DNA of 64,000 bases from a virus: IMG/VR virus record IMGVR_UViG_3300045988_150172; one strand, given 5' to 3'. The notes below the pieces were generated by a model that did not search any database, was not told the DNA's origin, and saw nothing but the letters and a program-made list of their open reading frames with translations. Below are positions 25,092 through 51,711 of the stretch, piece after piece. Both the position numbers and the translations under genes were made by a program. Positions within the stretch are counted from its first letter, which is position 1. Every line of letters starts with the position of its first letter.

Positions 25092-28000
25092 ATGATTCAG
25101 TTCAATGAAAATAATAAACTTTCTTTTCGGCAGCTGGATAGCATTATAGATACAGCAATAAGAATCATTCAGGATCTTCCTATAAAGGCAGTAAACCAGT
25201 TGATGGAAGCTTATAAGGGGGATCAGGATGCTATGTTGTCAGAAATATTTAGGCAGACGGAAAATGTCTTGAAATTGAACACCACATTAGAGACAGAACG
25301 CCTTTCCTATGTGGATCAGCTAACAGAAAGTATGGATGATTCCCTAAAGATAATGTCCTATAATTATTTTAAGACAACCATGCTTCCTAACTTTAGACAG
25401 GGGTGGAGGAATCTCGAGTGGGGGAATATGATACAGCTTTACCCAAACAGTGGCTATCTTGCCGCACGTTCTCACGGTAAATGTTTTTTGGCTGGTACAC
25501 ATATTCTTATGGCTGACTGGACTGTAAAGAATGTGGAAGACATCTATCCAGGGATGGAGGTAATGGGTATGGACTTCACACCAAGGAAAGTTCTTACTCG
25601 ACACATTGGTGCAGCTCAGATGTTTACAGTACATCAGGAGAATGGTGTTTCCTATACTGTGAACAGGTTTCACATTCTCTGTTTATGGGACACTAAAAGG
25701 AAGCATTATGTTGAAATTCCAATTGGTAATTTTCTAAAATATCCACAGGAAAAACAGAATAGATTTAGAGGGTACAGAGTGTTTTCAAGTGCCAAGCCAA
25801 TATTGGAATATTCACCAATAACAGTTGAGCCGTATGGTTATGGCTCCTATTATGGATTTGCCTGTGATGGTGATCACAAGTTTCTTCTGGAGGATAATAC
25901 TGTGGTGCATAATTCCTATGAATTTTGCATGGCGTTTCCCCTCTGGAGAATGTATTCTTATCGTAGGCCTAATTTTATGAAGCCTGACATACCGGATAAT
26001 ACCAATAGAAAAGAAACATGTATCATAACAAATACGGAAACTCTAGGTAAGGAGCATCTTGATAAGGTTAAGGAGGAGATTCATTCAAATGAAGCTCTTA
26101 CGGCTGTTCTTAATCCAAATGGTAAGGCTTCTCTTGGTGCTACTGGTTTTGAATGCGAAAATGGAACCAAATTGCATCTTAGAGGAAAGGATGGGTTTAT
26201 TCGAGGTCTTCACGTTGGGGCTGCTGTGTCTGATGACTTGCCTGATGAAAGTTCTATTTATTCCCTGGAACAGAGAGAAAAATTGAAGGACTTGTTCAAG
26301 GGTGCGATCACACCTATTGTGGAGCCGTATGGCTATAATATCGTGGATGGCTGTGTTACGCCTGATACACTTGTGTTGACGGCTGATGGCATTAAGGAAA
26401 TTGGGCGGCTTGCGCCTGTTGGTCTTGATTCCGAGCGTGGCTATTATGACTGGAATGGTCAGACATATAATGGTCAGAATCTGGAGGAAGTATCCTCCTA
26501 TTATGTGAATGGGAATACTGAGACCATTCGTGTGATACTTGATAGAGGGCTTGAACTGGAGACAAGCCATGTTCACCCAGTGCTTGTGTGTGATGTGGAT
26601 GGTCGATTTGTGTGGCGCAAATGTGAGGATCTTTCCGTTGGTGATTATGTGGCTGTAAAGATTGGTGCTGATGTATGGGGTAAGCCGTTGAATATTGACA
26701 GAGAGGAACTTTATCAGATGGGAATGTGTGTGGCTGATGGTTGCTTGAGTGGTGAACGAATAACGATAGCCAAAAAGGTTGACGGAATACGAAAGCATTT
26801 TATTGATGAACAGGGCTGGCATCCTGTAAAGGGTACTACTCACGATGATATTCACTTTAGGTGGTATAAGCAGGAGAAACGTGAGCTTTGGCATTCGTTT
26901 GGCTATGAATATGGCCTGTATAGTCACACTAAATATATCCCAGAGAAAGTGCTTTCAGCTTCCAAGGCTGATTTGTGTGCCTTTTTGTCTGGGTATTTTG
27001 ATGGTGATGGCTGTTTAACAAGGAATGATAGAGGTCGCTATCATATTAGCTGTTTTTCAGTGAGCAAGCGGTTAATTCAGCAGATTCAGTTCGTACTTTT
27101 GAATATGGGTATAGTTTCACACGTTACCTATAAGAAGTGTCAATCCACTGAAAAGGTCAAGACGGATAGAATGGGTTATTTATTGCGTATATCTTCACAG
27201 AATATGATTCAGAAGTTTATGCGTGAGATTGGCTTTCCTTATTCAGGCAAGGCAGACAAGTATGTTGATTCAGAAGTTAAGGTGAACAATGTCTGTCAAT
27301 ACGGTGTACCTTATCAGCGTGATTTGTTTAAGAGGATAAGAAAGCAGATTCATTTGACTGATGAAGATAGGAAGCGATTTGGGCTGGAATCATTTAAGAC
27401 ACAGAATAGAACGAAAATATCTATCTATACTGTGGGCGAGATGCAGAAACTGGCTGAGTGGGTTGAAAATTCAGGGTTATGTAATGAGGACACTTCCATC
27501 TTTTTGAGTAACGCAAAATTAGGATATGTTTTCTTGCCTGTGAAGCGGTTGGAACAGGGGCAGAGTGTTACTGTTGATTTTTCAATGCAGGAGACGCACT
27601 CCTTTGTTTCTAATGGAATTATTTCTCACAACACCCCATATTCTGAGAGAGACCTTTATTATGAACTGAAACAGGATCCTAAATTTAAGGTTTTTGAGTA
27701 CCCAGCTATATTTCCTGATGGTAGGCTTCTTGCTCCTGATAGATTTACATTTGATAAGCTAATGGAGGAAAAGAAGTCTGTGGGTACACTGGTGTTCAGC
27801 CGTGAGTATCTTGTTGTTCCTATTTCTGATGATGCCACCATTTTTCCGATGGAAATACTTATGCGAAGCACAATAGGAATGGAGAATGTGCGACTTGTGG
27901 ATAACATTGAGTCATTTCCGTTTAAGTTGTCTAGAGTGGTTGTAGGGTGTGACTTTGCTATATCAGGAAATGTAGGTGCGGATTATACCTGTTACACTGT

Positions 28001-28472
28001 GTGGGGGAAGGACTTGAATGATTCCTATTATCTTTTGTATGTTTATCGGGAACAGGGGCTTTCACACAATGAGCAGATAAATAAGATAGAATATTTGAAT
28101 ACTGTGTTTAAGCCGAATGAAATCGTGGTTGAGAATAACGGTTTTCAGTCTATTCTTGCTGACATGTGTGTTCAAAGGGGTATTAGGAATATTTTTCCGT
28201 TTACCACTACATCTGGAAATAAGAAAGATCTTAGAACAGGGTGGGCATCACTTGCGGCTTTGTTCGAAAGAGGTGACATACGATGCCCATATCATCCTGA
28301 CACACGACAGAAAATAGATACAATGTTTGGAGAATTTACATCCATTGCATTTCGACCTGATAGAGGTACATTGGAATCCATCAGTGGTCATGATGATACA
28401 GTATCATCCTCGTTTATGGCAATAAATAGATTACGTGAATCATCCGTTAGAATAAAGGTTGATTCAGTATAA
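25092..28472 (+). CDS. terminase large subunit interrupted by two inteins
   Basis: Exteins: YLAARSHGK|S P-loop. Nuclease motifs VVVGCDFAISG, VVENNGFQS, GHDDTVSS. The coding sequence stays in frame through both insertions. Confidence 0.85.
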   Translation: MIQFNENNKLSFRQLDSIIDTAIRIIQDLPIKAVNQLMEAYKGDQDAMLSEIFRQTENVLKLNTTLETERLSYVDQLTESMDDSLKIMSYNYFKTTMLPNFRQGWRNLEWGNMIQLYPNSGYLAARSHGKCFLAGTHILMADWTVKNVEDIYPGMEVMGMDFTPRKVLTRHIGAAQMFTVHQENGVSYTVNRFHILCLWDTKRKHYVEIPIGNFLKYPQEKQNRFRGYRVFSSAKPILEYSPITVEPYGYGSYYGFACDGDHKFLLEDNTVVHNSYEFCMAFPLWRMYSYRRPNFMKPDIPDNTNRKETCIITNTETLGKEHLDKVKEEIHSNEALTAVLNPNGKASLGATGFECENGTKLHLRGKDGFIRGLHVGAAVSDDLPDESSIYSLEQREKLKDLFKGAITPIVEPYGYNIVDGCVTPDTLVLTADGIKEIGRLAPVGLDSERGYYDWNGQTYNGQNLEEVSSYYVNGNTETIRVILDRGLELETSHVHPVLVCDVDGRFVWRKCEDLSVGDYVAVKIGADVWGKPLNIDREELYQMGMCVADGCLSGERITIAKKVDGIRKHFIDEQGWHPVKGTTHDDIHFRWYKQEKRELWHSFGYEYGLYSHTKYIPEKVLSASKADLCAFLSGYFDGDGCLTRNDRGRYHISCFSVSKRLIQQIQFVLLNMGIVSHVTYKKCQSTEKVKTDRMGYLLRISSQNMIQKFMREIGFPYSGKADKYVDSEVKVNNVCQYGVPYQRDLFKRIRKQIHLTDEDRKRFGLESFKTQNRTKISIYTVGEMQKLAEWVENSGLCNEDTSIFLSNAKLGYVFLPVKRLEQGQSVTVDFSMQETHSFVSNGIISHNTPYSERDLYYELKQDPKFKVFEYPAIFPDGRLLAPDRFTFDKLMEEKKSVGTLVFSREYLVVPISDDATIFPMEILMRSTIGMENVRLVDNIESFPFKLSRVVVGCDFAISGNVGADYTCYTVWGKDLNDSYYLLYVYREQGLSHNEQINKIEYLNTVFKPNEIVVENNGFQSILADMCVQRGIRNIFPFTTTSGNKKDLRTGWASLAALFERGDIRCPYHPDTRQKIDTMFGEFTSIAFRPDRGTLESISGHDDTVSSSFMAINRLRESSVRIKVDSV
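25482..25913 (+). mobile_element. mini-intein (144 aa, no endonuclease domain) inserted in the terminase Walker A loop
   Basis: Starts CFLAGTHIL, has block B TVNRFH, and ends ..DNTVVHN followed by Ser. Removing it restores GK|S. Confidence 0.8.
26352..27632 (+). mobile_element. full-length intein (427 aa) with LAGLIDADG homing endonuclease, in the terminase
   Basis: Starts CVTPDTLVLTADG, has block B ETSHVHP, LAGLIDADG motifs MGMCVADGC and LSGYFDGDGC, and ends NGIISHN|T. Confidence 0.85.
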
Positions 28473-31530: not shown

Positions 31531-31558
31531 GTTATTATTAAAAATTAAAATAAGAAAA

Positions 31559-32014
31559 ATGATTAAGGTAAAGATTTTTAATGAGAGTAAGTTTCTGGAA
31601 CCAACGTATCTTCCGGAATACAAGAGTTTGGGTGCATCAGGTGTGGATCTTAGAGCTGATATAGAAGAAGACATTGTGCTACATCCTATGCAGAGAATAT
31701 TGGTTTCTTCAGGGTTACGGCTGTCGATTCCTCAGGGCTATGAAGCTCAAGTTCGTTCTCGTTCAGGGCTTACAGTAAAGAATGGTGTTATTGTGCTTTC
31801 TCCAGGAACTATTGACAGCGATTTTAGAGGGGTGGTTGGTATTCCTTTGGCTAATTTGGGTGATGATGATTTTGTGATTCATAGGGGTGATCGTGTTGCA
31901 CAACTTGTTTTTCAAAAAGTGGAAATTGCCTGTTTTGAGCCAGTAACCTGTATTCAGGAACTTGGTGCTACAGATCGTGGTGATGGTGGTTTTGGTCATA
32001 CAGGGGTAAAATAA
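31559..32014 (+). CDS. dut: dUTP diphosphatase (trimeric dUTPase)
   Basis: GASGVDLRA, RSRSG, GTIDSDFRG, GDRVAQLVF and RGDGGFGHTG cover all five dUTPase motifs. The start is the internal ATG preceded by AAAAATGATT. Confidence 0.9.
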   Translation: MIKVKIFNESKFLEPTYLPEYKSLGASGVDLRADIEEDIVLHPMQRILVSSGLRLSIPQGYEAQVRSRSGLTVKNGVIVLSPGTIDSDFRGVVGIPLANLGDDDFVIHRGDRVAQLVFQKVEIACFEPVTCIQELGATDRGDGGFGHTGVK

Positions 32015-32033
32015 GAAAAAATCTAGAATTATT

Positions 32034-32065
32034 CTAGGATTTCAAAAGAAAAGTGGTTATATTTG
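32034..32065 (+). promoter_or_regulatory. Bacteroidota-type promoter (-33-like CTAG.. / -7 TATATTTG)
   Basis: ctaggatttcaaaagaaaagtggtTATATTTG. A 20-nt spacer. Aligns with the promoters at 42475, 51663 and 53291. Confidence 0.55.
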
Positions 32066-32089
32066 TAGTCATAAATTTATTAAATAAAA

Positions 32090-32653
32090 ATGATTATGGA
32101 AAACAAAGAATTGGCAGTACGAATGAAGATTCGGAGGCACAAAAATGACAGTGCAAAGTTGACGGAAATTATTGAATCAGCAACATCCACCGACTTGGAA
32201 AAGAAGATTGCTTCAGAATACCTTAATAAGGTTACTGAACTAGGGTGTGATACCAGCAAATCTGATACGACAGCAGCCGACACGGTTGCTACCGAAGTTA
32301 CAAGTTCAGAATTGACACCTGAGGAAGTTGATCGTCTTGGTGATGCAGAAAAAAGATTTGATAAGCGACAGGCTAATCGTAAGACACCATCTAAGGCTGA
32401 TAAGAATATGCGTGAATCCAAAAGAAGCACCTCCGTTTCTACCAGTAATTTGCATGAAAGCAAAAGGGAGAATCTGGAAGAGTCTGTTGAGGTTTCCGGT
32501 CTAAAGGTGGGCTCTATGGTTAGAATTGGTGATGAAGAGGGTGTTGTGGTACGTATTTATCGTAGTGCGGATGGTAAGGAGAAGTGTATGGTTAAGATAG
32601 GTGACAATAAACCTATTAAGAAACGTGTTACTTCTGTGGAACTTATGAAATAA
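32090..32653 (+). CDS. acidic/basic low-complexity protein with C-terminal SH3/KOW-like segment
   Basis: 187-aa ORF (an alternative ATG lies at 32096). C-terminus VGSMVRIGDEEGVVVRIYRSADGKEKCMVKIGD. Confidence 0.5.
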   Translation: MIMENKELAVRMKIRRHKNDSAKLTEIIESATSTDLEKKIASEYLNKVTELGCDTSKSDTTAADTVATEVTSSELTPEEVDRLGDAEKRFDKRQANRKTPSKADKNMRESKRSTSVSTSNLHESKRENLEESVEVSGLKVGSMVRIGDEEGVVVRIYRSADGKEKCMVKIGDNKPIKKRVTSVELMK

Positions 32654-32662
32654 TTAGAATTT

Positions 32663-33397
32663 ATGGTTGCAGATTCGGGAACCATAATCCTTATCAAGGG
32701 AGTCAGTGGAAGCGGTAAATCTACAAGGGTTTACTGTTTCCTTGATTTTCTGGAAAGCATTGGTATGGAATTAAGACCATATCAGTTTGTGAACATTCTT
32801 GGGCAGAAACAGGAAATAGGTGTGTATTCAGAAGAATTGAATATGCTTTTTCTTGGTAAGTTCTATGATGATAACGGAGTACGTAGATGGCAAGGTCTTG
32901 ATGCTGTTACAGGACGACTGCATACAGCGGAAGGGCTTTCTTATTTCTTGAAATGGGCTGGTCAACAGAAGTTGAATGTTGTACTGGAGGGTGCTGGAAC
33001 GTCTGTGACATGGCGATTGCGCCCGATGGAGATATGTGCTGAATACGAATTCCTAAACATCCTATATTTAGTCTATACGTTTAAGTTGGAACAGTATGAT
33101 GACTATGTTAGGAGGATAGAGTATCGTTCCGGCAAGGCTCCGAAAAGCGACGCCATGTGGCGGAAGCGCAAGGGGTTTGAATCTGATTATGCTCAGACTG
33201 TGGTGGAAGCGAAGGACTTGAATATGGCTGGGGCTGATATCGTCATTAAGTATAATCTTTTTGATGCGGATCCATGGGATTTAGGTACAAGCATTATGCA
33301 GTATTTTGGTCTTGATGAACTGTGTGATGAATTTAGGCAGTTTGTGGAAAATAGTAGTTATATTGAAGAGAATTCTTTTGAAAACATTAGAAAATGA
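32663..33397 (+). CDS. P-loop kinase (candidate nucleotide/DNA-base kinase)
   Basis: Walker A IKGVSGSGKST at the N-terminus. 244 aa. ATGA-coupled to the next gene. Confidence 0.55.
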   Translation: MVADSGTIILIKGVSGSGKSTRVYCFLDFLESIGMELRPYQFVNILGQKQEIGVYSEELNMLFLGKFYDDNGVRRWQGLDAVTGRLHTAEGLSYFLKWAGQQKLNVVLEGAGTSVTWRLRPMEICAEYEFLNILYLVYTFKLEQYDDYVRRIEYRSGKAPKSDAMWRKRKGFESDYAQTVVEAKDLNMAGADIVIKYNLFDADPWDLGTSIMQYFGLDELCDEFRQFVENSSYIEENSFENIRK

Positions 33398-34404
33398 ATG
33401 GAATAGTTCCAAATGATAACCTGACATACTTATTCTATTGGTGCTGTGAACGAATGAACATATTCTGGAAGCGGTACAATGGGGAACAGCAGCCGTGGAC
33501 TAGTGATGAAATCTTACAGCAGTATAAGTTCACGAACGTGTATCGTGTGCTGGATAGGTCTAGTCAGTATATGCTTCGTAATGTCATCTATAATGGTAGG
33601 GAGTATTCCAGGGAAGACATGTTCTTTCGTATTCTACTGTATAAGCATTTTAATCTTCCTGAGACTTGGGATGCTCTTATGACTGAGTTTGGGGATATTA
33701 CCTATGATACTGGATGGGAGGATATTGCACGCTTTCTTGATGATAGAATTGAACATGAAGTCATTTATTCTAATGCTTTTATGTTGACAGGGTGGTTTTA
33801 TTCTCTTCCGGAGTATGCTAATATTCGTGGAGCATCAAAACATCGTGGGTATTTTGAAGTGTTTAGACGTAAAATTTTTGAGAATGGCGAAATTGAGGCC
33901 TTTCTTAATGCCACAGGCTTCGAAGAACTTTTTTATATGTTTAAGAAGTTGGAACCATTCAGTGATTTCATGGCACAGCAGTATTGTCTTGACCTGAATT
34001 ATTCTCCTTTATATGACTTCACAGAAAATGACTTTGTTGTAACTGGTCCTGGAAGTAAGAGAGGTATTCAATTTGCATTTGAGGGTGAACATAAACATGA
34101 TGGTGAAGCTGTCTTACAATGGACACAGGAACATTTTGAAGAGTTGATGGATAGGTTTTGTGAGGACACAGGTATGGTTTGGAATCCATTACCGTGGGAG
34201 CCAGTACCTACATTGACAAATATTCAAAATTGTTTTTGTGAATTATCAAAGTATGCTAAATGTATGGGTGTGCAGTTTAAGAAGAATACTAAAGGTAGAC
34301 TGAAGAATGTTTATACTACACCAAAATCAGAAATATCCTATATGTTTCCACGGAAATGGAATGTGGAAATGCCGTTAAAGGGGCAAATAGAAACTTATAA
34401 ATAG
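33394..34404 (+). CDS. candidate DNA base hypermodification protein (5-hmdU-kinase-helical / aGPT-pyrophosphorylase-like)
   Basis: The N-terminus ERMNIFWKRYNGEQQPWTSDEILQQYKFTNVYRVLDRSSQY matches, from memory, the PWT.D.IL..Y+F.NVYR.LDR signature of that family. Not verified by any search. Confidence 0.45.
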   Translation: MNGIVPNDNLTYLFYWCCERMNIFWKRYNGEQQPWTSDEILQQYKFTNVYRVLDRSSQYMLRNVIYNGREYSREDMFFRILLYKHFNLPETWDALMTEFGDITYDTGWEDIARFLDDRIEHEVIYSNAFMLTGWFYSLPEYANIRGASKHRGYFEVFRRKIFENGEIEAFLNATGFEELFYMFKKLEPFSDFMAQQYCLDLNYSPLYDFTENDFVVTGPGSKRGIQFAFEGEHKHDGEAVLQWTQEHFEELMDRFCEDTGMVWNPLPWEPVPTLTNIQNCFCELSKYAKCMGVQFKKNTKGRLKNVYTTPKSEISYMFPRKWNVEMPLKGQIETYK

Positions 34405-34412
34405 AAACGATT

Positions 34413-35528
34413 ATGTATTTTGAATTTGATAATCTTAGTCAGGCTCTTGTCGGGCTTTTGAGGGATCTTAAAAGTGCTGGTATTTGGACACGTAGAGGAA
34501 CCAACCCAGCAGGAAATATGTGCTTGGAATTTCCAGAAGCAGTCCTTATAAAGATAAATAATCCACTGAATAGATATGTCTTTGTTCCAGAGCGTAAATG
34601 GAATAAGACATTGGGGTGGATAGAATCCCTCTGGATTGCACGTGGAGATAATTGTTTGGAAATGCCGTCTGCCTATGTTAAGAACCTGTTGTCTTTTTCG
34701 GATGACGGTGAGACAATGCGTGCAGGGTATGGTCCGAGGATTCGTAACTATGGTGCTCATTTTGTGACAAGCTTTTACAAGAATGATGAATCATACAAGA
34801 TATATAGTCAGTATGATTCTAGGTGTATGAGTGCTGTAAAAGCAACAGACCAGTTGAGATTTATAGTGGATAAGTTTAAGCAGGATATTACCACCAGAGA
34901 AGCCGTAATTACCATTCATGATCCTATTGCTGATGACTTTAACAATGGAGAGATTCTTATAACAAAGGACACCCCATGTACGCGATCCATTCATTTTATG
35001 ATTGTTGACGGCAAGATGAACTGTTATGTGGATATGAGGAGTAATGACTTAATTTGGGGATTAAGTGCTGTTAATATCTTTAATTTTACCTTAATGCAGG
35101 AGTATGTTGCTGCAATGGTAGGTGTGCCTGTGGGGGCATACTATCATAAAGTTGATAATCTGCACATTTATGAGGGTTCACTTCCTATGCTTCAGAGTAT
35201 TATTGCGGTAAATGAGACACCACGAAGTCTTGAGATGTGGTCAGATTGGTACAGATTTTCGGAATGTAGTGATTGGCATGGTTATGAACATACATTTACT
35301 ACACTGGAGGAATTTGATATGCTGATTAGTCTGTTGTCTGTTTTTGAGCGAGGTGTGCGTGGTGCTGACGACTTACCGTATAGCAATAAGGAAGCTATCT
35401 CTGAGATAGAGTCCAAGTTTAGCGATGAACCTATGTTTAAGGACTGGGCAAAGGTTATTTATCGTAAGTGGTCAAAAGATACGTCTGTGACATTTGATAA
35501 TCCATACTTGACAAAGTTATTTATATAA
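34413..35528 (+). CDS. thymidylate-synthase-fold enzyme (ThyA or dUMP hydroxymethylase)
   Basis: RRGT.., ESLWIARGDN, TPCTRSIHFMIVDGKMNCYVDMRSNDLIWGLSAVNIFNFTLMQ, DNLHIYE align with PCH..FQFYV.DGKLSC.LYQRS.D.FLG.PFNI.SY / D.HLY. It has the catalytic Cys and the uracil-specifying Asn, plus an extra C-terminal extension of about 100 aa. Confidence 0.8.
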   Translation: MYFEFDNLSQALVGLLRDLKSAGIWTRRGTNPAGNMCLEFPEAVLIKINNPLNRYVFVPERKWNKTLGWIESLWIARGDNCLEMPSAYVKNLLSFSDDGETMRAGYGPRIRNYGAHFVTSFYKNDESYKIYSQYDSRCMSAVKATDQLRFIVDKFKQDITTREAVITIHDPIADDFNNGEILITKDTPCTRSIHFMIVDGKMNCYVDMRSNDLIWGLSAVNIFNFTLMQEYVAAMVGVPVGAYYHKVDNLHIYEGSLPMLQSIIAVNETPRSLEMWSDWYRFSECSDWHGYEHTFTTLEEFDMLISLLSVFERGVRGADDLPYSNKEAISEIESKFSDEPMFKDWAKVIYRKWSKDTSVTFDNPYLTKLFI

Positions 35529-35558
35529 GTTACTTTAGAAACCATTGTGTATTGGAAC

Positions 35559-35626
35559 AGCCGTGCAACCTTGGTCTGGGAAGCCTGTGACAGGTGAGGA
35601 GAAAGTTCGAATCTTTTCACGGCTGC
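35559..35626 (+). ncRNA. tRNA-like element (canonical acceptor and T arms, defective anticodon arm)
   Basis: AGCCGTG pairs with CACGGCT (7 bp; 8 bp if C35558/G35625 are included). The T arm is GAAAG-TTCGAAT-CTTTT. The centre folds only as GCCTG-TGA-CAGGT, a 3-nt loop, and position 8 is C rather than U. Confidence 0.35.
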
Positions 35627-35632
35627 AATTGA

Positions 35633-35658
35633 TTAAGTTAAAAATGATTTTGATATGA
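35633..35658 (+). promoter_or_regulatory. leader cassette TTAAGTTAAAAATGATTTTGATATGA (mini-ORF MILI* overlapping the start codon)
   Basis: Mini-ORF at 35644..35658. The gene's ATG is at 35655 (ATGA overlap). Confidence 0.6.
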
Positions 35659-36200
35659 ACTACAAAAAGATTGAATATCTGCTTCAGATGAAGCAGATAC
35701 AAAGACTTCCAAACGTTCCACACCACAGAAGTTATAATATTCTTGAACATGGGTTTGTCGTAGGTATGCTTTTTAGGTGGTTTGCTTCTGCTTGTGATGT
35801 ATCCTATGATATTAATGTGTGGGATAAGGTGCTGATGCACGACTATCTGGAGGCATTTACAGGCGATTTGAACTTTGTTGTTAAGAACCTTTCAGAGAAG
35901 ACTTCCAGTGCGTGGGCTACAATAGAGAAGGAGGTTTGTGATCGTGATACAGCGTTGAACCACTATTCTGATGAAGCTATAAAGTCTGCCATGACGGAAG
36001 AACAGTATACACTCTTTAAGGTGTGTGACTATCTCGATCTGTGGATTTTCTGTAAGCAGGAAGAAGCCCTTGGGAATACTACAACAGGGAATATGACCGT
36101 GATAAATAATTGTAAAAGGCTTATCTATAATCTTTGTGGGCAGGGGCAGAATAGAAAGTGGCTTCCTATTTTTGATTTTATGGCTAAATATCAAGCATAG
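35655..36200 (+). CDS. HD-domain phosphohydrolase (YfbR-like 5'-deoxynucleotidase)
   Basis: HHRSYNILEHGFVVG ... VLMHDYLEAFTGDL gives the H..HD..D metal-ligand pattern. Confidence 0.65.
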   Translation: MNYKKIEYLLQMKQIQRLPNVPHHRSYNILEHGFVVGMLFRWFASACDVSYDINVWDKVLMHDYLEAFTGDLNFVVKNLSEKTSSAWATIEKEVCDRDTALNHYSDEAIKSAMTEEQYTLFKVCDYLDLWIFCKQEEALGNTTTGNMTVINNCKRLIYNLCGQGQNRKWLPIFDFMAKYQA

Positions 36201-36202
36201 TT

Positions 36203-36874
36203 ATGATGAAGATTCCAGTTGAAATATATGCCTTTGTTGGTGTAATAGGTTCAGGAAAGAGCCATCGTCTTGAACAGATGAAAAAGGAGTATAATGGCGA
36301 TGGTCAGGTTGTGATTACTGCTGATTTTTCCGATGGAATTCGTGATTTGACACGGCAGATATTTGGGTACAGTAGTGAATTTGGAGATGTAAATTCAGAA
36401 GAATATCGCGACTGGAAGAACAATGTTGTATGTGAATTTAGTGAGATGACTCCTTACGGTGTTATTGAAAATAAAATGAGGGGTAGGGAAATTCTGTGTC
36501 GTATTGGTGAGGGTGTAAAGAGTGTTGCAGGGGTGGATGTATGGGCTAGATACACAACAGCCAGAATTTATGATCAAGTATGCAAGCAGTCATTTCGTTC
36601 TGATGTCCGTGTGAATGGAGTGCGAGTATTGATTGGTTCCGTTCGGTTTAAGGATGAAGTTCAGTCTATTTTTCAACTATACAGGGATTTAATGGATAAG
36701 GCTCAATTCTTGGGTATGGAACCTCAGATTCATTTTATCTTCTGTGATTACCATTCACAGAGCTATGATGCTACAAGTCATCACATCAGTGAAGCATTTG
36801 CACAGGCAGTGATTAATTTGGGCAAGTATAAGGATGGGGATGATATTACTGAAATTGTAAATTACGTAGTATGA
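36203..36874 (+). CDS. P-loop deoxynucleoside-monophosphate kinase-like protein
   Basis: Walker A FVGVIGSGKSHR near the N-terminus. 223 aa. ATGA-coupled to the polymerase gene. Confidence 0.55.
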   Translation: MMKIPVEIYAFVGVIGSGKSHRLEQMKKEYNGDGQVVITADFSDGIRDLTRQIFGYSSEFGDVNSEEYRDWKNNVVCEFSEMTPYGVIENKMRGREILCRIGEGVKSVAGVDVWARYTTARIYDQVCKQSFRSDVRVNGVRVLIGSVRFKDEVQSIFQLYRDLMDKAQFLGMEPQIHFIFCDYHSQSYDATSHHISEAFAQAVINLGKYKDGDDITEIVNYVV

Positions 36875-38508
36875 GACAGGAATTTGAACAGTATCTTCAA
36901 AGGAATTTAATGTCGTATAAGGAAGTCAGTCCTTATGTGTACGAAATAGGCGGCAAGACATTTGAACTTTATAAGCCTGACAATGACGGTGCTCTGTTTG
37001 ATGACGACTTTAGGTTCACAGGCATTCCGGCCAACCCAGACAGATATACTTCTTCGGAGACCACCATTGACACCCAGTGTGATTTCTATGCCTATAAGTT
37101 CGGTGGTGTGTGGTATATGCTTCCGAAGGATGGACGGGATGGTGTAAAGCTAAGACGGCTGAAATATATTGGAGAAGCTGTGCAGGAGATTCCTACGCCT
37201 GTTTTTATGGGTGTTCATGGTCAGTATGAAATTATGTCAGGCTCTGGAACCTATGCTGATTGGTGTGCAAAGGCAAAATTCTATGGGGTGACCACGCTTG
37301 GTATTTGTGAGAAGAATACTCTGTCGGGTGCTTTGAAGTTTCAGGTGGAATGCCAGAAGAATGGTTTGAAGCCTGTTATCGGAATGGAGTGTACCGTATA
37401 TGATACAGTTAAGGACTTTAGGTTTACTGCCAAGGTGTTTGTAAGAAACGAAGTTGGGTGGCAGAGTTTACTTACCATGTCGGAAGCTATTAACTGTGAT
37501 AATCCAGGGTATATATCTATTGACCAGTTTAAGGATGAAATTAGCCGAAATGCTGATGGGCTGGTGGTAGTTGCAGACCCCAAGACGACCGACTATGATA
37601 CATTCGCTAAAATAGGTCTAAAAATCGGTTATTATCAACTTGATCCTGTTAGGTATGTGGAAGAGTCTCGCGATGAAGTATATTTGAAGAATCTGAGGAA
37701 ATTCTATCATAGTGGTATGCTTGCACTTCCTATGGTTGATGCGTGGTATCTAGACGAAGAATATAGCTGCATTAGAGCTAGGCTTGCGAGTATAGGTGGG
37801 TCCAACTTTTATGACAGTGATGACCAGTGGTTTAAGCCGAATGATGTATTGTTCTGTCAGCTTGCTGACATGTTCCCAAGCACGGATGATGGTCTGGGGC
37901 TTGCATATCAGGACTTTTTGGATGGGCTGGAAAGGTTGATGGATATTGCTGACAGTATTGATTTTACTGTGGACACAACCAAGAGACATCTTCCACGTTA
38001 CATTATGACGGAAGAGGAAGCAGCCAAGTATGCCACCAATGAGGACATGTTCTGGGGGCTTATTGATGAGGGACTTCAGCGGCATCCTGAACTGATTGAA
38101 CGGTACGGTGAGGATGTTGTGATGGAACGTATTGACAGGGAGGTTGGCGTAATTAAGCTGGGGGATACAATTGATTACTTCCTAATTACAAGGGATATCA
38201 TTAACTGGTGTCATCGTAATGGCATTATGACAGGGATTAGTCGTGGTTCAGCCGGAGGGTGTCTTATTTCGTATCTGTTGGCTATCACTAAATTGGATCC
38301 GATAGGCTATAATCTTCTTTTTGAGAGGTTCCTGAATGAGGGTCGTGTTGGTTATTGGAAGGATGAACAGATTGTTATTATTAGTTTTGAGGATGGTCGG
38401 CAGATGGAATTTGATTCCAAGAAAAAACTTGTTGTAGAACGTAACGGCCAACACATAGAATTATGTGCGAAGGATTTTGAAGTCGGGGACAATATACTTG
38501 CATATTGA
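36871..38508 (+). CDS. dnaE: DNA polymerase III alpha (DnaE-type), N-terminal segment; conserved sequence ends near 38349
   Basis: Degenerate PHP region, then ISRGSAGGCLISYLLAITKLDPIGYNLLFERFLNEGRV. The last 53 codons (VGYWKDEQ..NILAY*) have no DnaE counterpart. Confidence 0.85.
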   Translation: MRQEFEQYLQRNLMSYKEVSPYVYEIGGKTFELYKPDNDGALFDDDFRFTGIPANPDRYTSSETTIDTQCDFYAYKFGGVWYMLPKDGRDGVKLRRLKYIGEAVQEIPTPVFMGVHGQYEIMSGSGTYADWCAKAKFYGVTTLGICEKNTLSGALKFQVECQKNGLKPVIGMECTVYDTVKDFRFTAKVFVRNEVGWQSLLTMSEAINCDNPGYISIDQFKDEISRNADGLVVVADPKTTDYDTFAKIGLKIGYYQLDPVRYVEESRDEVYLKNLRKFYHSGMLALPMVDAWYLDEEYSCIRARLASIGGSNFYDSDDQWFKPNDVLFCQLADMFPSTDDGLGLAYQDFLDGLERLMDIADSIDFTVDTTKRHLPRYIMTEEEAAKYATNEDMFWGLIDEGLQRHPELIERYGEDVVMERIDREVGVIKLGDTIDYFLITRDIINWCHRNGIMTGISRGSAGGCLISYLLAITKLDPIGYNLLFERFLNEGRVGYWKDEQIVIISFEDGRQMEFDSKKKLVVERNGQHIELCAKDFEVGDNILAY

Positions 38509-38661
38509 TGATAATTCATGATTATATTCACGGAATGTGTTATTAAAGTATAGATAATATAATTATGTCGAAGATAACAAAAATTAAGATTGAGGACAGG
38601 AAGGGATTCGTGCGTGTTTCCCTTCCTGACGAGTAGCCCCCATCAGTAATGGTGGGGGCAG
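38350..38661 (+). mobile_element. intervening sequence in dnaE, candidate self-splicing (group I-like) intron; boundaries inferred
   Basis: 312 nt. It follows a U and ends in G. AT-rich core with two GC-rich hairpins lacking U-tracts (aggaaggga/tcccttcct and gccccca/tgggggc). Its removal fuses ..FLNEGRV to SEIDVDF.. in frame. Confidence 0.45.
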
Positions 38662-41643
38662 AGTGAAATTGATGTAGATTTTCCCGGAGAAGACCGAGGA
38701 AAAGTCAAGCAGTATATGGAACAGCGTTTTGGTGAAGTTAATGTCTGTTCAGTGGGTACTTACTCCGCCTTGCAGTTAAGAGCGGCTATTAAGGACATGT
38801 CTCGTGTGTATGGGCTGGAGTTTCAGGAGGTGAATGACATGATGAAACTCTTTGGAGTGGATGATCGTAAGCCTGAAGACCTGTTTAGGATAGCCTGTGC
38901 TCAACCGCGTGTGAAGAAGTTCGTTAAGGATCACCCTGACTTGGTCAATGAGGTCATGCTGATTATGCCAGCACCAAAGGCACGTTCAGTTCACGCCTGT
39001 GCAACCATGATATTTCCAAAGGAGCATGATATGTTCCACTGGACGCCTATTCGTAAGCAGAATGGAGAATATGTGACTGAATGGGAGGGTGGTGAAATGG
39101 ACGGTGCTGGATTTTTGAAAAATGATATTCTGGGTATTAAACAGCTGGATAAGTTTCAGAATATGGTGCGTCTTGTGAAAGAGAATGAGGGTGTTGATGT
39201 GGACATTTTCAATGTACCGCTTGACGACCCAGAGGTTTATCGTTATTTTCAGAATGGCTGGACGGAAGATAATTTTCACTTTGGCTCACGTGGTTTGACA
39301 GGCTACTGTAAGGAGATGAAACCTGAAAACATAGAGGACTTGATTGCAGCTATTGCCCTGTATCGCCCTGGAGCAATGGAGAACGGTTTCCATACGGAGT
39401 ATGTTAAGCGTAAGGAGGGTGCGCCTGTAAGTTACTTTGTAGGTTCCGAAGAAATTCTCTCTAATACTTATGGGATTTTTTGTATTTCGGAAGATAGCGA
39501 TGTGCTGACTGAAAGAGGTCTTGTTAAGATTCAGGATATCATTCCTGGAAAGGACAGAGTTAAAACAGAGGATGGTTCTTTTCAGACAGTCTATTTGAAG
39601 AAGGATAATGGTGTTAGAGATGTCGTTGAAGTCCAAACAGGCTTTGGGCGGCCAGTGCTCTGCACCCCTAATCATAAGTTTCTAACAAGAGAACGTGGTT
39701 GGCAGGAAGCACAGAATTTGCGACACAATGAGGAAATTGTATGTTATTTTGAACAACCGTTAAGAAAGGATGATCTAACTGAAAGGGAATGTCTTGAACA
39801 TTGGCTGTTAGGGTATTTTCTTGCAGAGGGTAGTTGTGGTTCATCTCCATATTTTACTGTTACCAATAAGGAAGTTGCTGAAAAGGTGTCTCAGATTATA
39901 TTGAAACTCTTTCCATCTATGATGGTAGGTATTAAGGAGAAAAAGACTGTTCATAAATCAGGTAGGATTGGTATAACAACACGAGTATATGTGAGACAGA
40001 AGAATGGCAACAATGGCTATTTTAATGCGAATTATGAACCTAATCAGTTTATTGTTTGGTTGAAAAAATGGGGTGTTTGGGGTCAGAGCTGTTATACCAA
40101 GAGACTTCCTAAAGATTATTCCTTGGACATGATTGTTGGTCTATTGGAGGGTGACGGCTGTATGAAGAATTATACTTTGCGTCTTTGTAATAAGGAACTT
40201 TCTATGGATGTTTATATGGGGTTGCAGTCTTACGGGATTCAGTCTTCATATAAAATTAGTAAGAGTGGAATACCTGTTGTAAGTTGGAATGACTTGAATC
40301 AAGAGTTTAATCTTAGATTGTTTAGTCATAAAAAATTGGTAAGACCGTCGACAGTACATTCTGGTTATGGTAGGGTTCGTTCTATTACTCCTATGGGGGC
40401 ACGGAGAGTGTATGATTTGAGTGTGGATAATGTTCATAGTTTTGTTGTAAATGGCTGTGTTGTAGCGAATTGCTTCCAGGAACAAATTATGGAATTGTGT
40501 AAGTGCTTGGGTGGGCTTTCACTTGTGGAAGCTGATGATGTGCGAAAGGCTATGGTGAAGAAGAAGTATGAAGCACTTCACCAGTATCATCCACGATTTG
40601 TCGACAACTACGTGACACAGTTCGGTGTGACGAATGAATATGCTGAAAATGTGTGGGATGCTATTGACAAGGCTTCCACCTATCTGTTCAACCGTTCTCA
40701 TGCTGTTGCCTATGCTCTTACAGGTTATATCTCACAGTGGATGAAAGTTCATTATCCGATAGAATACTGGAGTGTGGCATTTAAGGAAGCAACAACAGAT
40801 GACTATCCTCGTTATATTGCTGAGATCAATAAGACAGGGGTCTGTACCGTAAAACCTGTGGACATTAATCTGTCAGGAACAGGTGTGTATATTGACTTTG
40901 CGGCGAAGACGCTTTATTGGTCAGTTACAGGTGTGAAACAGGTTGCCGACAAGGCAGCAACGCAGATACTCAAGGAACGGGACGAAAATGGTAGGTACTG
41001 GTCTCTTGATGACTTTGTAACTCGACACAAGTGGAAGGGTTCTGCTGTGAACACAAGGGTTGTGCAGAATCTAATTCTTGCAGGTGCATTTGATGCAGTA
41101 GAGAACATTACTGATGCCCCACAGAGGGTGGAACTGCTGATATCCTATTTAGCTTCCACGAAAAACAAGCTGAATGGGGAGGATCCTATTATAGCAGGGT
41201 TTGACAATCACAGGAATGATGCTTGGTGGTGGCAGCTTATGCAGAAGAAGCTTTCAGGGCTTGCATTCTTTGATTATAGTAGTATCTATGAAAAGGTGAA
41301 GCAGTTCTTTCCTGACGGTTATGAATATCACACATTTGAGGACTGTAATGATGTTGAATATCGTCCTAACAGGGGTTATGTGATTGTTGGGGGTTATGTG
41401 TCTGCAATAGACCTTAAAAAGACTAAAAAAGGAGATGTTCTGTGTCGCATTACACTGGAAAATAATTATGAGTTCCTGGATTTGGTGGTATTTCAGTCAG
41501 AATATGAACGTCTTCAGGAGGAAATTACGGCAAGCAAGGATAATATTGTGCTTTTGAATGCAACGCTCTACTATGATGCACGAAATGATAGAAATGCCTT
41601 ACGTGCTGACATGGAGACCAATATGGTGACATTTAAGTTATAG
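38662..41643 (+). CDS. dnaE: DNA polymerase III alpha, C-terminal segment (first ATG only at 38716)
   Basis: The open frame upstream of the ATG reads SEIDVDFPGEDRGKVKQYMEQRFG.., which is the catalytic PDxDxDF region. Downstream motifs: YRPGAME, FQEQIMEL, FNRSHAVAYAL. Confidence 0.85.
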   Translation, partial: SEIDVDFPGEDRGKVKQYMEQRFGEVNVCSVGTYSALQLRAAIKDMSRVYGLEFQEVNDMMKLFGVDDRKPEDLFRIACAQPRVKKFVKDHPDLVNEVMLIMPAPKARSVHACATMIFPKEHDMFHWTPIRKQNGEYVTEWEGGEMDGAGFLKNDILGIKQLDKFQNMVRLVKENEGVDVDIFNVPLDDPEVYRYFQNGWTEDNFHFGSRGLTGYCKEMKPENIEDLIAAIALYRPGAMENGFHTEYVKRKEGAPVSYFVGSEEILSNTYGIFCISEDSDVLTERGLVKIQDIIPGKDRVKTEDGSFQTVYLKKDNGVRDVVEVQTGFGRPVLCTPNHKFLTRERGWQEAQNLRHNEEIVCYFEQPLRKDDLTERECLEHWLLGYFLAEGSCGSSPYFTVTNKEVAEKVSQIILKLFPSMMVGIKEKKTVHKSGRIGITTRVYVRQKNGNNGYFNANYEPNQFIVWLKKWGVWGQSCYTKRLPKDYSLDMIVGLLEGDGCMKNYTLRLCNKELSMDVYMGLQSYGIQSSYKISKSGIPVVSWNDLNQEFNLRLFSHKKLVRPSTVHSGYGRVRSITPMGARRVYDLSVDNVHSFVVNGCVVANCFQEQIMELCKCLGGLSLVEADDVRKAMVKKKYEALHQYHPRFVDNYVTQFGVTNEYAENVWDAIDKASTYLFNRSHAVAYALTGYISQWMKVHYPIEYWSVAFKEATTDDYPRYIAEINKTGVCTVKPVDINLSGTGVYIDFAAKTLYWSVTGVKQVADKAATQILKERDENGRYWSLDDFVTRHKWKGSAVNTRVVQNLILAGAFDAVENITDAPQRVELLISYLASTKNKLNGEDPIIAGFDNHRNDAWWWQLMQKKLSGLAFFDYSSIYEKVKQFFPDGYEYHTFEDCNDVEYRPNRGYVIVGGYVSAIDLKKTKKGDVLCRITLENNYEFLDLVVFQSEYERLQEEITASKDNIVLLNATLYYDARNDRNALRADMETNMVTFKL
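39481..40470 (+). mobile_element. intein (330 aa) with LAGLIDADG endonuclease in dnaE
   Basis: Starts CISEDSDVLTERG, has block B CTPNHKF, LAGLIDADG motifs LLGYFLAEGSC and IVGLLEGDGC, and ends VYDLSVDNVHSFVVNGCVVAN|C. Removal restores TYGIF-CFQEQIM. Confidence 0.85.
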
Positions 41644-50343: not shown

Positions 50344-51414
50344 ATGAGTCTTTTTGAATTTATAGCTAAATCACGTTCAGGTGTCTATAAGGATACTTCA
50401 GAAAATCGTAGACTTCATCGTGTAGGCCAGCGTTATGGTGCAATTCAACAGATTGTTGATGAGGGGGAACTTGTTCCTGGAATGCCTAATTCGACAAAGG
50501 TGAATCTGAAGAAGTACCTTTCAGGTAAGATGAAGCACCAAGTAGATGCATATATTAATGCACTAAAGGTTACTCCTGCTTGGAATGATATTGAGAAGCT
50601 TCGTGCTGTGACTAAAGCTTATCAGGATATGTTTAATGGCAGTTTTGATTCCTTGTCTAAAAGCAATAGAGCTCTTTTTGTTGAAATTGTTAAAAGACTT
50701 CAGAATAGAATTGCTGAACTTGGTGATGCGAAGAAACCTGATAATGCTGTTGTTACGACAAATGTGGGCACAAAATCTAAATTTGAACAGGCGGCTGAAA
50801 AGGCTGGTTTTGAACGTGGTGAGCCGATGTCTATTGATTTGGCTGATGATAAACATGCCAATCCTAAATATATGAAATCAGTTGATGGAAGTTTTCGTCC
50901 ATATACTTGTAATTGTCAGACATGCGTTGTTGCCTATGAACTTAGACGTAGAGGTTATGATGTAGAAGCAATGGGTGCTGGTGTTCAAAAGGGTTTTATT
51001 AATGAATATCAACACTCACTTGCACTTGATAGCACAAATGCCTTTTTGGGAATATCATTTAAGCGTTCTACATTAAATTGGAATAATTCAATTAAGAGTA
51101 ATACACCTAAAGGTCGTCGTGAGTATGTTGCTAATCTGTTTGATGCAACAAAAGAAGAGGGTCGGTATTTCCTTTCCATGAAAAATAGAAGAAGATCTAC
51201 TGGACACATTGTTGTAGTGGAATCCACTGAGGATGGTGGAAAACTTTTAGTTGATCCTCAATCTGGGGAAAGGATTAATCTTACTGATGGTGCTGCCGTT
51301 GATAAATACTTTTCTAGAGTAGATGTTAAGCATCTCTATAATAAAGTATTTAGGGTTGATAATCTGGAATTTAATCCTGCCGTGTTTACCGTTGTAACTA
51401 AAAATTCTGAATAA
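50344..51414 (+). CDS. leader-bearing cargo protein A1 with Cys/His papain-fold-like C-terminal domain
   Basis: The N-terminus MSLFEFIAKSRSGVYKDTSENRRLHRVGQRYG is shared with 51712. The C-terminal CNCQTCVVAYELRRRGYDVEA ... STGHIVVVE resembles, from memory, toxin-type domains found at the ends of MuF/gp7 head proteins. Confidence 0.55.
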   Translation: MSLFEFIAKSRSGVYKDTSENRRLHRVGQRYGAIQQIVDEGELVPGMPNSTKVNLKKYLSGKMKHQVDAYINALKVTPAWNDIEKLRAVTKAYQDMFNGSFDSLSKSNRALFVEIVKRLQNRIAELGDAKKPDNAVVTTNVGTKSKFEQAAEKAGFERGEPMSIDLADDKHANPKYMKSVDGSFRPYTCNCQTCVVAYELRRRGYDVEAMGAGVQKGFINEYQHSLALDSTNAFLGISFKRSTLNWNNSIKSNTPKGRREYVANLFDATKEEGRYFLSMKNRRRSTGHIVVVESTEDGGKLLVDPQSGERINLTDGAAVDKYFSRVDVKHLYNKVFRVDNLEFNPAVFTVVTKNSE

Positions 51415-51416
51415 AA

Positions 51417-51653
51417 ATGATTGCTGAAAAGGACATATTGAAGATCTGTGAAGCAGCAGGTTGGAAAGGTGGAGAACTTCTTTATGGAGGTTTTGCCGAT
51501 GGAAAGTATTACGTATCCTATGGTGGTAAGAGTGAGGATGGTGTTATTCTGCTAGTGGGAGATCCTATAATTCTCATTGTAGAAAATGGTGTGTGTAGGG
51601 TTGCTACTGATAGTGAAAGGGTTTATTTTTATGAAAATTTCGTGAAAGATTAA
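51417..51653 (+). CDS. small protein B1 (paralog of frameshifted 52688..52925)
   Basis: 78 aa: DILKICEAAGW..LLYGGFADGKYYVSYG..PIILIVENGVCRVATDSERVYFYENFVKD. Confidence 0.55.
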   Translation: MIAEKDILKICEAAGWKGGELLYGGFADGKYYVSYGGKSEDGVILLVGDPIILIVENGVCRVATDSERVYFYENFVKD

Positions 51654-51662
51654 GGAATAATC

Positions 51663-51693
51663 CTTGGATATTTCAGAAAAGTGATTATATTTG
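51663..51693 (+). promoter_or_regulatory. Bacteroidota-type promoter (CTTG -33 / TATATTTG -7, 19-nt spacer)
   Basis: cttggatatttcagaaaagtgatTATATTTGcg. Aligns with the 42475 promoter. Confidence 0.6.
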
Positions 51694-51711
51694 CGTTATA
51701 AAATTTAGGCT

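Follow-up and report, generated by a model that had tools for sequence, protein, structure and literature searches.

A phage gene cluster for predicted 5-hydroxymethyluracil DNA that pairs a DNA kinase homologue with a helical HMUDK_hel protein and has no recognised amino-acid:DNA transferase

Thymidine hypermodification has so far been known from a handful of cultured phages, and in these the chemistry of the final base is decided by a transferase step that belongs to the aGPT-Pplase2 enzymes (hereafter Pplase2). Here we describe a cluster of seven genes in a 64,000-nucleotide stretch of phage DNA (IMG/VR record IMGVR_UViG_3300045988_150172, hereafter the window), in which a homologue of the phage DNA kinases stands next to a helical protein of the HMUDK_hel family (HEL) and an enzyme of the thymidylate synthase fold (ThyA-like). 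The cluster belongs to an abundant phage clade that has the kinase and HEL and, as seen in a near-complete genome, lacks an amino-acid:DNA transferase. From the family memberships of the proteins, the reading that we regard as probable is that thymine is replaced by 5-hydroxymethyl-deoxyuridine (5-hmdU) at replication, and that this base is then phosphorylated and further processed on the polymer by the kinase and HEL, which together would be the equivalent of the gp186 protein of phage SP10. A preliminary description, made from the letters of the window, had listed the same contiguous genes and proposed a thymidine hypermodification cluster. The observation is confirmed, with all seven open reading frames (ORFs) found on the + strand where they had been placed, and the interpretation is supported; from it we infer that the virion DNA may carry non-canonical thymidine. 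No published account of this phage clade or of its modification genes was found in the literature, and a megablast search with the cluster against 50,697 phage records gave no close cultured relative.

The arrangement of the cluster is not due to chance. In the window clade, whose members are 50-95% identical, the order dUTPase, u187 (a conserved protein without a known family), kinase, HEL, ThyA-like, HD nucleotidase, deoxynucleoside monophosphate (dNMP) kinase-like protein and DnaE polymerase is invariant. When the genes lying within 10 kb of an HMUDK_hel gene were counted at 76 IMG/VR loci, a ThyA-like gene was present at 63 of them, an HD gene at 55, a dUTPase gene at 53, a kinase gene at 49 and a dNMP-kinase-like gene at 47. 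All HEL homologues belong to PF18723, and the close ones are on contigs of about 100 kb. None of the cluster proteins matched a known defence family in a PADLOC search.

The enzyme that would commit the phage to a modified base is the ThyA-like protein, which had been left between a thymidylate synthase (TS) and a dUMP hydroxymethylase in the preliminary description. The features on which that choice was based, namely the ThyA fold with a catalytic Cys, a uracil-specifying Asn and a C-terminal extension, are indeed present (Cys189, Asn221 and about 100 aa), and the sequence comparisons group the protein with the hydroxymethylases. Pfam Thymidylat_synt covers residues 71-269 only, and the score stays below every NCBIfam TS equivalog cut-off, the best being 63.5 bits versus 174.55, with 44.7 versus 108.35 for TIGR03284. 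Among proteins of the PDB, the CMP hydroxymethylase MilA is matched at 1.5e-21, versus 3.7e-10 or weaker for TS, and PHROG 5131 is matched at 6.9e-63, versus 8.8e-28 for PHROG 160, a further family that bears the thymidylate synthase annotation. The top matches in cultured phages are the SP10 dUMP hydroxymethylase, the deoxyuridylate hydroxymethyltransferases of SPO1-like phages, and the proteins of YuA/M6-like phages and of ViI (27% identity to the ViI hydroxymethylase, 3e-30 by blastp), followed by Maribacter, Bacillus G and actinophage proteins.

The alignment with E. coli ThyA (sequence identical to PDB 1AOB) points in the same direction. Residues C146, E58, Y94, R166, S167, D169 and N177 are kept (C189, E71, Y106, R209, S210, D212 and N221 in the window protein), together with H207 and Y209, and the TS residues W80, H147 and D205 are replaced by L92, T190 and N249, respectively, while the extension takes the place of the C-terminus that closes TS. 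The ViI enzyme has the same pattern of kept and replaced residues, as does the homologous protein of the E. coli anti-phage operon NTTI that is discussed below. Since MilA, which acts on cytosine, has an Asp where Asn221 stands, uracil is the likely substrate of the ThyA-like protein. The role of W80 in TS is to shield the exocyclic methylene intermediate, which can be trapped by solvent or thiols when this residue is missing, so that the loss of W80 fits a hydroxymethylase. By its equivalog scores and residues, then, the protein does not appear to be a ThyA thymidylate synthase; it groups in the pyrimidine hydroxymethylase clade and is predicted to be a dUMP 5-hydroxymethylase. It is very improbable, in our judgement, that it is instead a divergent TS in a cluster that boosts dTTP for canonical DNA. 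The Pfam match, the thymidylate synthase label that databases often give to such genes, and the common presence of dUTPase, dNMP kinase and nucleotidase genes in large phages would agree with that account. However, it is at odds with the scores below all TS equivalog cut-offs, the loss of the three TS residues and of the C-terminus, and the hydroxymethylases being the best relatives, and it leaves unexplained why HEL and a homologue of the 5-hmdU DNA kinases are conserved and co-transcribed here.

This type of enzyme was also noticed in another setting: in Maribacter phage Molly_1 (locus L002, NC_062751 72234-74727) a hydroxymethylase-type ThyA gene directly follows genes for a beta-glucosyltransferase, a UDP-glucose dehydrogenase and a nucleotide-sugar epimerase, which suggests that Flavobacteriia phages of the Molly_1 type may have a glycosylated hydroxymethylpyrimidine in their DNA.

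Regarding the kinase, the P-loop protein had been described as ATGA-coupled to a 336-aa product, and this holds: the overlap at 33394-33397 couples the kinase and HEL translationally. The kinase reaches 79 bits against the Pfam HMUD2 profile (cut-off 25), with the match limited to profile positions 3-180 of 298, and its Walker A motif, GVSGSGKST, is intact. After the ViI proteins of Lee et al. had been located in the ViI genome by accession and orf numbers, blastp aligned the kinase with ViI gp243 (29% over 180 aa, 8.6e-17), versus only 0.038 for the second ViI kinase, gp67; a PDB search with the kinase returned no match. ViI gp243 phosphorylates 5-hmdU in DNA in vitro (PMC8989533), and DNA kinases are among the genes that Lee et al. 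(2018) found to be unique to hypermodifying phages. The profile score, the intact Walker A motif and the homology to an active member place the window protein in the HMUD2 family, and by analogy with gp243 it is predicted to be a 5-hmdU DNA kinase. The kinase queries of an earlier survey were of the gp54, gp67 and gp37 types only, and because the kinase of these phages is of the gp243 type, that survey probably missed them. As a separate observation, genes for GIY-YIG homing endonucleases have invaded the modification cluster of relatives, for example at the kinase/HEL junction in locus L004.

The 336-aa protein HEL had been likened to a family linked with hypermodification, and the profiles bear this out; the refuting condition named in the preliminary description, a lack of profile similarity to such families, clearly does not apply (E 5e-72). 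It scores 243 bits against HMUDK_hel (cut-off 25), residues 11-291 aligning with profile positions 5-275 of 281. An AlphaFold model (pLDDT 93.6) is all-alpha, and in a Foldseek search of BFVD it matched best SP10 gp186 (E 1.6e-11, TM 0.76), with the PhiW-14 helical-domain protein C9DG43 at 2.5e-7, along with proteins of phiRSL1 and of Microbacterium and Nodularia phages and proteins annotated 'Pplase1'. Using blastp, ViI gp160 is matched (25%, 1.3e-23) and the ViI transferase gp247 is not. The modelled fold is that of the helical domain of SP10 gp186 and of its PhiW-14 counterpart, and ViI gp160 is to be regarded as a homologue. Towards solved structures, a Foldseek search of the PDB gave no significant match and a faint similarity to helix-hairpin-helix (HhH) glycosylases, the best, though weak, likeness by TM-score being to DUF2419, a nucleotide-binding family.

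HEL is not a member of the Pplase2 family. The possibility that it is a disguised Pplase2 was rejected, as a profile of 47 homologues aligned with ViI gp247 with an hhalign probability of 0.1. That profile gave no match among PDB sequences, the Foldseek search of the PDB did not return the transferase PaMx11 gp46, and matches to amino-acid:DNA transferases in BFVD were weak (E 8e-3 to 0.16). The candidate active-site motifs differ as well. In HEL, Cys282-Glu283 is invariant within N-x-x-C-E-x-x-K (N279/C282/E283/K286) across the 47 homologues and five very distant members, and the motif is kept in ViI gp160, in a Glutamicibacter phage and in the Bacteroidota chromosomal and E. coli NTTI members, whereas Pplase2 has E-T-x-x-C. 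The known amino-acid:DNA transferases are ViI gp247, M6 gp51 and PaMx11 gp46; in PhiW-14 the Pplase2 member gp109 transfers putrescine. In Pplase2 both the cysteine and a nearby glutamate are needed, the cysteine being proposed to attack C6 of the phosphorylated base 5-PmdU and the glutamate helping to hold an active-site metal. Because of this requirement for a Cys and a nearby Glu, HEL may use a similar chemistry.

No transferase of this kind was detected. The preliminary description had noted no amino-acid-tailoring enzyme in the window, a statement that is upheld and also holds for most of the genome of IMGVR_UViG_3300045988_160295 (99,357 bp), a close relative. At the compared genes its identity to the window is 95-100%, and all but about 3.2 kb of it was covered by means of four further scans. 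With 13 Pplase2 and pyridoxal phosphate (PLP) enzyme queries and a gp67-type kinase, tblastn found nothing in the window, in this genome or in 2.2 Mb of clade loci. No window protein had a Pfam Pplase match, and among the remaining large ORFs of the relative Pfam recognised just a UvrD helicase, a PNK-type phosphatase and a lysin. From the pathway type described by Lee et al., therefore, the hydroxymethylase-type enzyme and the DNA kinase homologue are found in the window and its relative, and the transferase and tailoring enzymes are not: the clade, as seen in a near-complete genome, has the kinase and HEL and neither Pplase2 nor a recognised tailoring enzyme.

More distant clades retain the HEL, ThyA-like and HD genes and differ upstream of HEL. 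One sister variant has the kinase and Pplase2, with or without a PLP enzyme resembling ViI gp226 (seven loci and L006). A second has a GT1 glycosyltransferase with a cytidylyltransferase and a HAD-like protein (seven loci), and on two independent contigs (L058:8462-10975 and L087) GT1 is fused to HEL in a protein of 837 aa. A third has a TET-associated glycosyltransferase (TAGT; 5-6 loci). Modules of one or the other glycosyltransferase type are located at L049:6462-9332, L056:9136-9993 and L059:2555-3502. In these phage loci HEL is thus the constant element, whereas the partner varies between a kinase and a glycosyltransferase. The glycosyltransferases would have as their target the hydroxymethyl group, which the kinase is known to derivatise, and their presence suggests that the sister phages of this type carry glycosylated 5-hmdU.

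Among the hypermodifying phages that have been characterised, SP10, which makes alpha-glutamylthymidine, is one of the closest. In SP10 gp186 the kinase and the helical domain are fused, and in the window they are ATGA-coupled; no structural match of HEL is better than that to gp186, and the SP10 hydroxymethylase is among the best matches of the ThyA-like protein. The SP10 set comprises gp186, gp218 (kinase 2) and the dUMP hydroxymethylase, with no Pplase2 detected (Lee 2018, Table 3), as in the window clade. Unlike gp186 or ViI gp67, however, the window kinase is of the HMUD2 (gp243/gp218) type; moreover, no radical SAM gene was found, identities are about 24-30%, and the host phylum is different. 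The set of ViI, whose base is 5-NeOmdU, is larger, with the hydroxymethylase, dnk, a dUTPase, the kinases gp67 and gp243, the serine:DNA transferase gp247, the PLP decarboxylase gp226 and gp160. Homologues of the hydroxymethylase, gp243 and gp160 are common to ViI and the window, and ViI likewise clusters its kinase, thyA, dnk and dUTPase genes, but the window clade has no gp247-type transferase, PLP enzyme or gp67-type kinase, and an HD nucleotidase stands where ViI has a MazG-type or bifunctional dTTPase. The sister clades L006, L055 and L060-L067, with their HMUD2 kinase (K2), Pplase2 and PLP enzyme, are closer to ViI in this respect.

These memberships may be combined into a pathway of two stages. 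In the first, the dUTPase would make dUMP and keep dUTP out of DNA, and the ThyA-like enzyme would form 5-hmdUMP by adding a hydroxymethyl group where a synthase adds a methyl group. Competing dTMP would be cleared by the YfbR-like HD nucleotidase, and the dNMP-kinase-like protein, with the host nucleoside diphosphate kinase, would raise 5-hmdUMP to the triphosphate, which the phage DnaE would accept so as to insert 5-hmdU for T. In the second stage, on the polymer, the HMUD2 kinase would convert 5-hmdU to 5-PmdU, the activity known for ViI gp243, and the coupled HEL would process the phosphorylated base, the pair corresponding to a split version of the SP10 gp186 kinase::helical-domain fusion. 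HEL might flip the base out, which is consistent with its distant HhH glycosylase resemblance; Cys282 might then attack C6 with the assistance of Glu283, expelling the leaving group to give an exocyclic methylene, and a nucleophile or a hydride would resolve this intermediate. As no Pplase2 or tailoring enzyme was found, several end products are possible, namely a new adduct, thymine, or residual 5-hmdU and 5-PmdU. The family memberships and the synteny are observations, and the activity of the kinase homologue is taken from the literature; for the chemistry of HEL, the final base, and what the HD protein and the dNMP-kinase-like protein do, we infer what would fit them.

Several points weigh against this pathway. 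All of its support is computational, and sequence cannot separate a hydroxymethylase from a synthase with certainty. The dNMP-kinase assignment is based on one PHROG match. Pplase2, the sole class proven to attach groups to 5-PmdU, was not found, about 3.2 kb of the genome of the relative being outside the coverage, and HEL has no sequence or profile similarity to Pplase2 and only a weak structural one. In the literature we found no activity for any HMUDK_hel or Pplase1 protein, gp160 included, and no report that gp160 is required in ViI, where the aGPT-Pplase with a demonstrated requirement is gp247; the kinase domain of SP10 gp186 phosphorylates even without its helical domain. The fusions of HEL to thymidylate-kinase-like and MazG domains, described below, also fit a role on free nucleotides, and in bacteria HEL is paired with a ThyA-like gene without a kinase of the K1 or K2 type.

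Some of these points would agree equally with a transient modification, in which 5-hmdU is used for replication and is then either turned back to thymine by the kinase and HEL before packaging or left as 5-hmdU or 5-PmdU, so that the virion has no hypermodified base. In SP10, PhiW-14, ViI and M6, the 5-hmdU that is not hypermodified does become T on the polymer, by an enzyme that is not named (PMC8989533), and SP10, PhiW-14 and ViI each carry a protein of the HMUDK_hel family; the lack of Pplase2 and recognised tailoring enzymes in the window clade, and of a report that ViI hypermodification needs gp160, would also be accounted for. To form thymine, however, a hydride donor is required, and no cofactor domain can be recognised in HEL; a round trip to T has no obvious benefit, and the glycosyltransferase-type sister clades keep HEL with no kinase within 10 kb. 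We hold this account, the main rival, to be rather unlikely, if worth keeping in mind, and retain the two-stage pathway with its processing of phosphorylated 5-hmdU as the preferred reading.

HEL belongs to a large family, with 5,201 members at 50% identity in a scan of 1.84 billion representatives, and some of its relatives direct attention to free nucleotides. The representative library contains fusions of the types thymidylate-kinase-like::HEL, HEL::MazG::MazG_C and HEL::MT-A70, the last with a DNA adenine methyltransferase (fusion proteins P0137, P0141, P0155, P0164, P0167, P0178 and P0251), and in ViI a MazG-like gene adjoins gp160. HEL could accordingly bind or hydrolyse nucleotides such as dTMP or those of the 5-hmdUMP type, with the kinase also being a nucleotide kinase, and the DNA would then be plain 5-hmdU DNA as in SPO1. 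Besides the thymidylate-kinase-like and MazG domains, this would be in line with the weak resemblance of HEL to DUF2419 and with its tightest linkage, which is to the ThyA-like gene (63/76 viral and 42/80 bacterial loci, mostly as a direct neighbour). The comparison with SPO1/SP8, where 5-hmdU is complete and not further modified, is indeed close for the pre-replicative steps, which follow the same logic of a dUMP hydroxymethylase, dTMP/dTTP clearance and a dNMP kinase, but the window has in addition a DNA kinase and HEL. Furthermore, the closest characterised relative of the kinase, ViI gp243, acts on DNA, and HEL is fused or adjacent to enzymes of DNA bases (the SP10 DNA kinase, TAGT, GT1 and MT-A70), while Lee et al. 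(2018) did not find the aG/PT-PPlase proteins, of glycosylase fold, in SPO1 or in the other non-hypermodifying phages compared. A function in the nucleotide pool is therefore considered improbable, and a role for HEL on DNA is preferred.

HEL is not restricted to phages. In bacterial genomes sampled at one per species, 397 relatives were found, mostly in Bacteroidales, Clostridia and Psychrobacter. Among the 80 best bacterial loci, 42 have a ThyA-like gene in the flank of about 8 kb, usually adjoining HEL, and one has an HMUD2 kinase; frequent companions are DUF1599, a ThsB-like TIR protein and Nmad2. These genes form a widespread chromosomal operon, HMUDK_hel - ThyA-like - DUF1599 - ThsB-like TIR - Nmad2, mostly in Bacteroidales (L007:10001-13974; L088-L167), and its pair is 36% (HEL) and 39.5% (ThyA-like, over full length) identical to that of the window. 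It is the counterpart of the E. coli operon NTTI (TS, adenylate kinase, HMUDK_hel, TIR, Nmad2), a validated anti-phage defence found with DefensePredictor (Science 2026; PMC13092281), whose TS, kinase and HEL are most similar to the ViI hydroxymethylase, dnk and gp160. The operon shares with the window an HMUDK_hel protein with the Cys-Glu pair, a hydroxymethylase-type ThyA with the same C-terminal extension and a small P-loop kinase. Unlike the window cluster, it is cellular, has the ThsB-like TIR and Nmad2 proteins, and is devoid of an HMUD2 kinase, dUTPase, HD protein and polymerase.

These relationships raise the question of whether the phage cluster could itself be an NTTI-type module, carried against competing phages and not for modification of the phage's own DNA. 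NTTI is experimentally validated, its TS, kinase and HEL are homologous to the ViI and window proteins, and the Bacteroidota operons are 36-40% identical to the window HEL/ThyA-like pair. Yet no TIR or Nmad2 gene, the bacterial companions of HEL, is present in the window, which consequently does not qualify as NTTI; throughout a large phage family, without exception among its members, the genes lie in the replication module and by the polymerase, and the dUTPase, HD nucleotidase and DNA kinase stand alongside, as in ViI. Because of the missing TIR and Nmad2 genes and the position within the replication module, a defence role is unlikely, and we give it hardly any credence; own-DNA modification by the kinase and HEL remains the preferred reading.

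If the phage and cellular systems are considered together, a tentative proposal can be made, one that we consider possible and no stronger: HMUDK_hel/Pplase-1 proteins may be self-sufficient, Cys-dependent enzymes acting on 5-hmdU DNA, a core to which kinases or glycosyltransferases are joined. With the kinase alone, such an enzyme might give a thymine derivative not yet described, or it might turn (phospho)hydroxymethyluracil to thymine on the polymer, and the same chemistry would operate in NTTI.

The features of the cluster and the adjoining polymerase gene are listed in Table 1.

Table 1. Genes of the modification cluster and the polymerase gene that follows it, in window coordinates
Feature	Position	Strand	Family match or note
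dUTPase	31556..32014 (alternative start upstream, 31511)	+	Pfam PF00692 3.1e-27
u187, conserved protein without a known family	32090..32653	+	homologues in 41 related loci
K2, predicted 5-hmdU DNA kinase, HMUD2 P-loop	32663..33397	+	Pfam PF18747 3.8e-22
HEL, HMUDK_hel / 'Pplase clade 1', 336 aa	33394..34404	+	Pfam PF18723 5e-72
ThyA-fold enzyme, predicted dUMP 5-hydroxymethylase	34413..35528	+	Pfam Thymidylat_synt 4.9e-17
HD YfbR-like 5'-deoxynucleotidase	35655..36200	+	Pfam PF12917 4.3e-16
dNMP-kinase-like P-loop protein, candidate 5-hmdUMP kinase	36203..36874	+	PHROG 139 2.2e-11
DnaE-type replicative polymerase, interrupted	36871..41643	+	Pfam PHP, DNA_pol3_alpha, DNA_pol3_finger, HHH_6, Intein_splicing

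The dUTPase had been credited with all five motifs, which are readable as ASGVDLRA, VRSRSGL, GTIDSDFRG, GDRVAQLVF and RGDGGFGHTG, and it exceeds the cut-off of the NCBIfam dUTP diphosphatase equivalog NF001862 (156.7 bits vs 103), with a match to PHROG 135 at 2.4e-49. The next protein, u187, had been called an unknown acidic protein. No Pfam, PHROG, NCBIfam or PADLOC family was found for it, but it is not acidic: with 34 D+E versus 37 K+R and a pI of 8.7 it is net basic. It has a helix at the N-terminus, a linker of low complexity, the motif RQxxRKTPSKxDKxM and, at the C-terminus, a small beta domain (PGxKVGS...DGKEKCMVK), and its homologues always occupy the interval between the dUTPase and the kinase, exclusively in the clade that has the kinase only.

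The HD protein, described from the start as a YfbR-like deoxynucleotidase, reaches 59.6 bits against PF12917 (cut-off 25.9) and stays below the NCBIfam equivalog cut-off (35 vs 122). It aligns with E. coli YfbR (PDB 2paq) at 2.2e-5, with EH, HDxxExxxGD and D retained; we take the metal and catalytic residues of YfbR to be H33, H68, D69, E72, D77 and D137. These features make it YfbR-like and a candidate dTMP-clearing enzyme. The second P-loop protein has the motif GVIGSGKS, and its earlier reading as dNMP-kinase-like is borne out by PHROG 139 only; no Pfam family scores above its cut-off. A structural relationship to one of the solved dNMP kinases was also considered and rejected; as no PDB sequence is matched, the dNMP-kinase assignment is weak.

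The replicative polymerase that follows was correctly named, being of the DnaE type, although the gene is interrupted. A tblastn comparison with a relative whose gene is continuous located an insertion of 315 nt, which contains in-frame stops, at 38350-38664, just before the catalytic PDIDxDF-type motif, after which the dnaE frame resumes unchanged, and an intein with LAGLIDADG and Hint domains lies at about 39493-40443, in the second half of the gene. The insertion is 98.7% identical in L015 and L016; L039 and L047 carry versions of about 1 kb at this position, and L012-L014 and L025 have no insertion. Because of this sporadic presence, a mobile self-splicing intron would fit. Rfam, at its gathering and E-value thresholds, did not recognise the insertion as a group I intron, and the RNA fold has a z-score of -2.9 and two strong 3' hairpins. 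One of these, at 38633-38669, has a sub-threshold resemblance to Rfam CRISPR-DR9 (27.7 bits vs a gathering cut-off of 45), which is most likely due to chance. A second intein is present in the large terminase gene (25092-28472), whose product has 1126 aa versus 699 aa in a relative.

The window is a segment of a single phage genome with nearly all genes on the + strand. Along it, tail and baseplate genes with BACON domains are followed by the intein-containing large terminase gene and then by the replication block, where the seven cluster ORFs (31511/31556-36874, all on the + strand) are located between the primase and the polymerase. The portal has its nearest relatives in uncultured phages from human faeces (50%), and the same is true of DnaE (40%); next come proteins of Chryseobacterium, Bacteroides, Cellulophaga and Tenacibaculum phages, and the window portal is distantly related to that of SP10 (34.5%). 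These relatives, together with the BACON and DUF4494 domains encoded in the window, support a host among the Bacteroidota, apparently of the human gut, and the carrier of the cluster is a myovirus-like Bacteroidota phage of about 99 kb. Elsewhere in the window (50344-52440 and 59922-61550) are genes for a protein resembling papain-fold glutamine deamidase toxins, a candidate RelA/SpoT-like small alarmone synthetase that is below the Pfam cut-off, and a GroEL-type chaperonin.

Because it keeps the precursor pathway, the kinase and HEL without a transferase, the clade is a natural minimal system for the function of HMUDK_hel. The family extends from SP10, PhiW-14 and ViI to a validated E. coli anti-phage operon, and through this link to NTTI the role of HEL matters beyond the modification of phage DNA. 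For the phages themselves, a modified virion DNA, if there is one, would affect nanopore base-calling as well as restriction digestion and amplification, and such phages may be under-counted in gut viromes.

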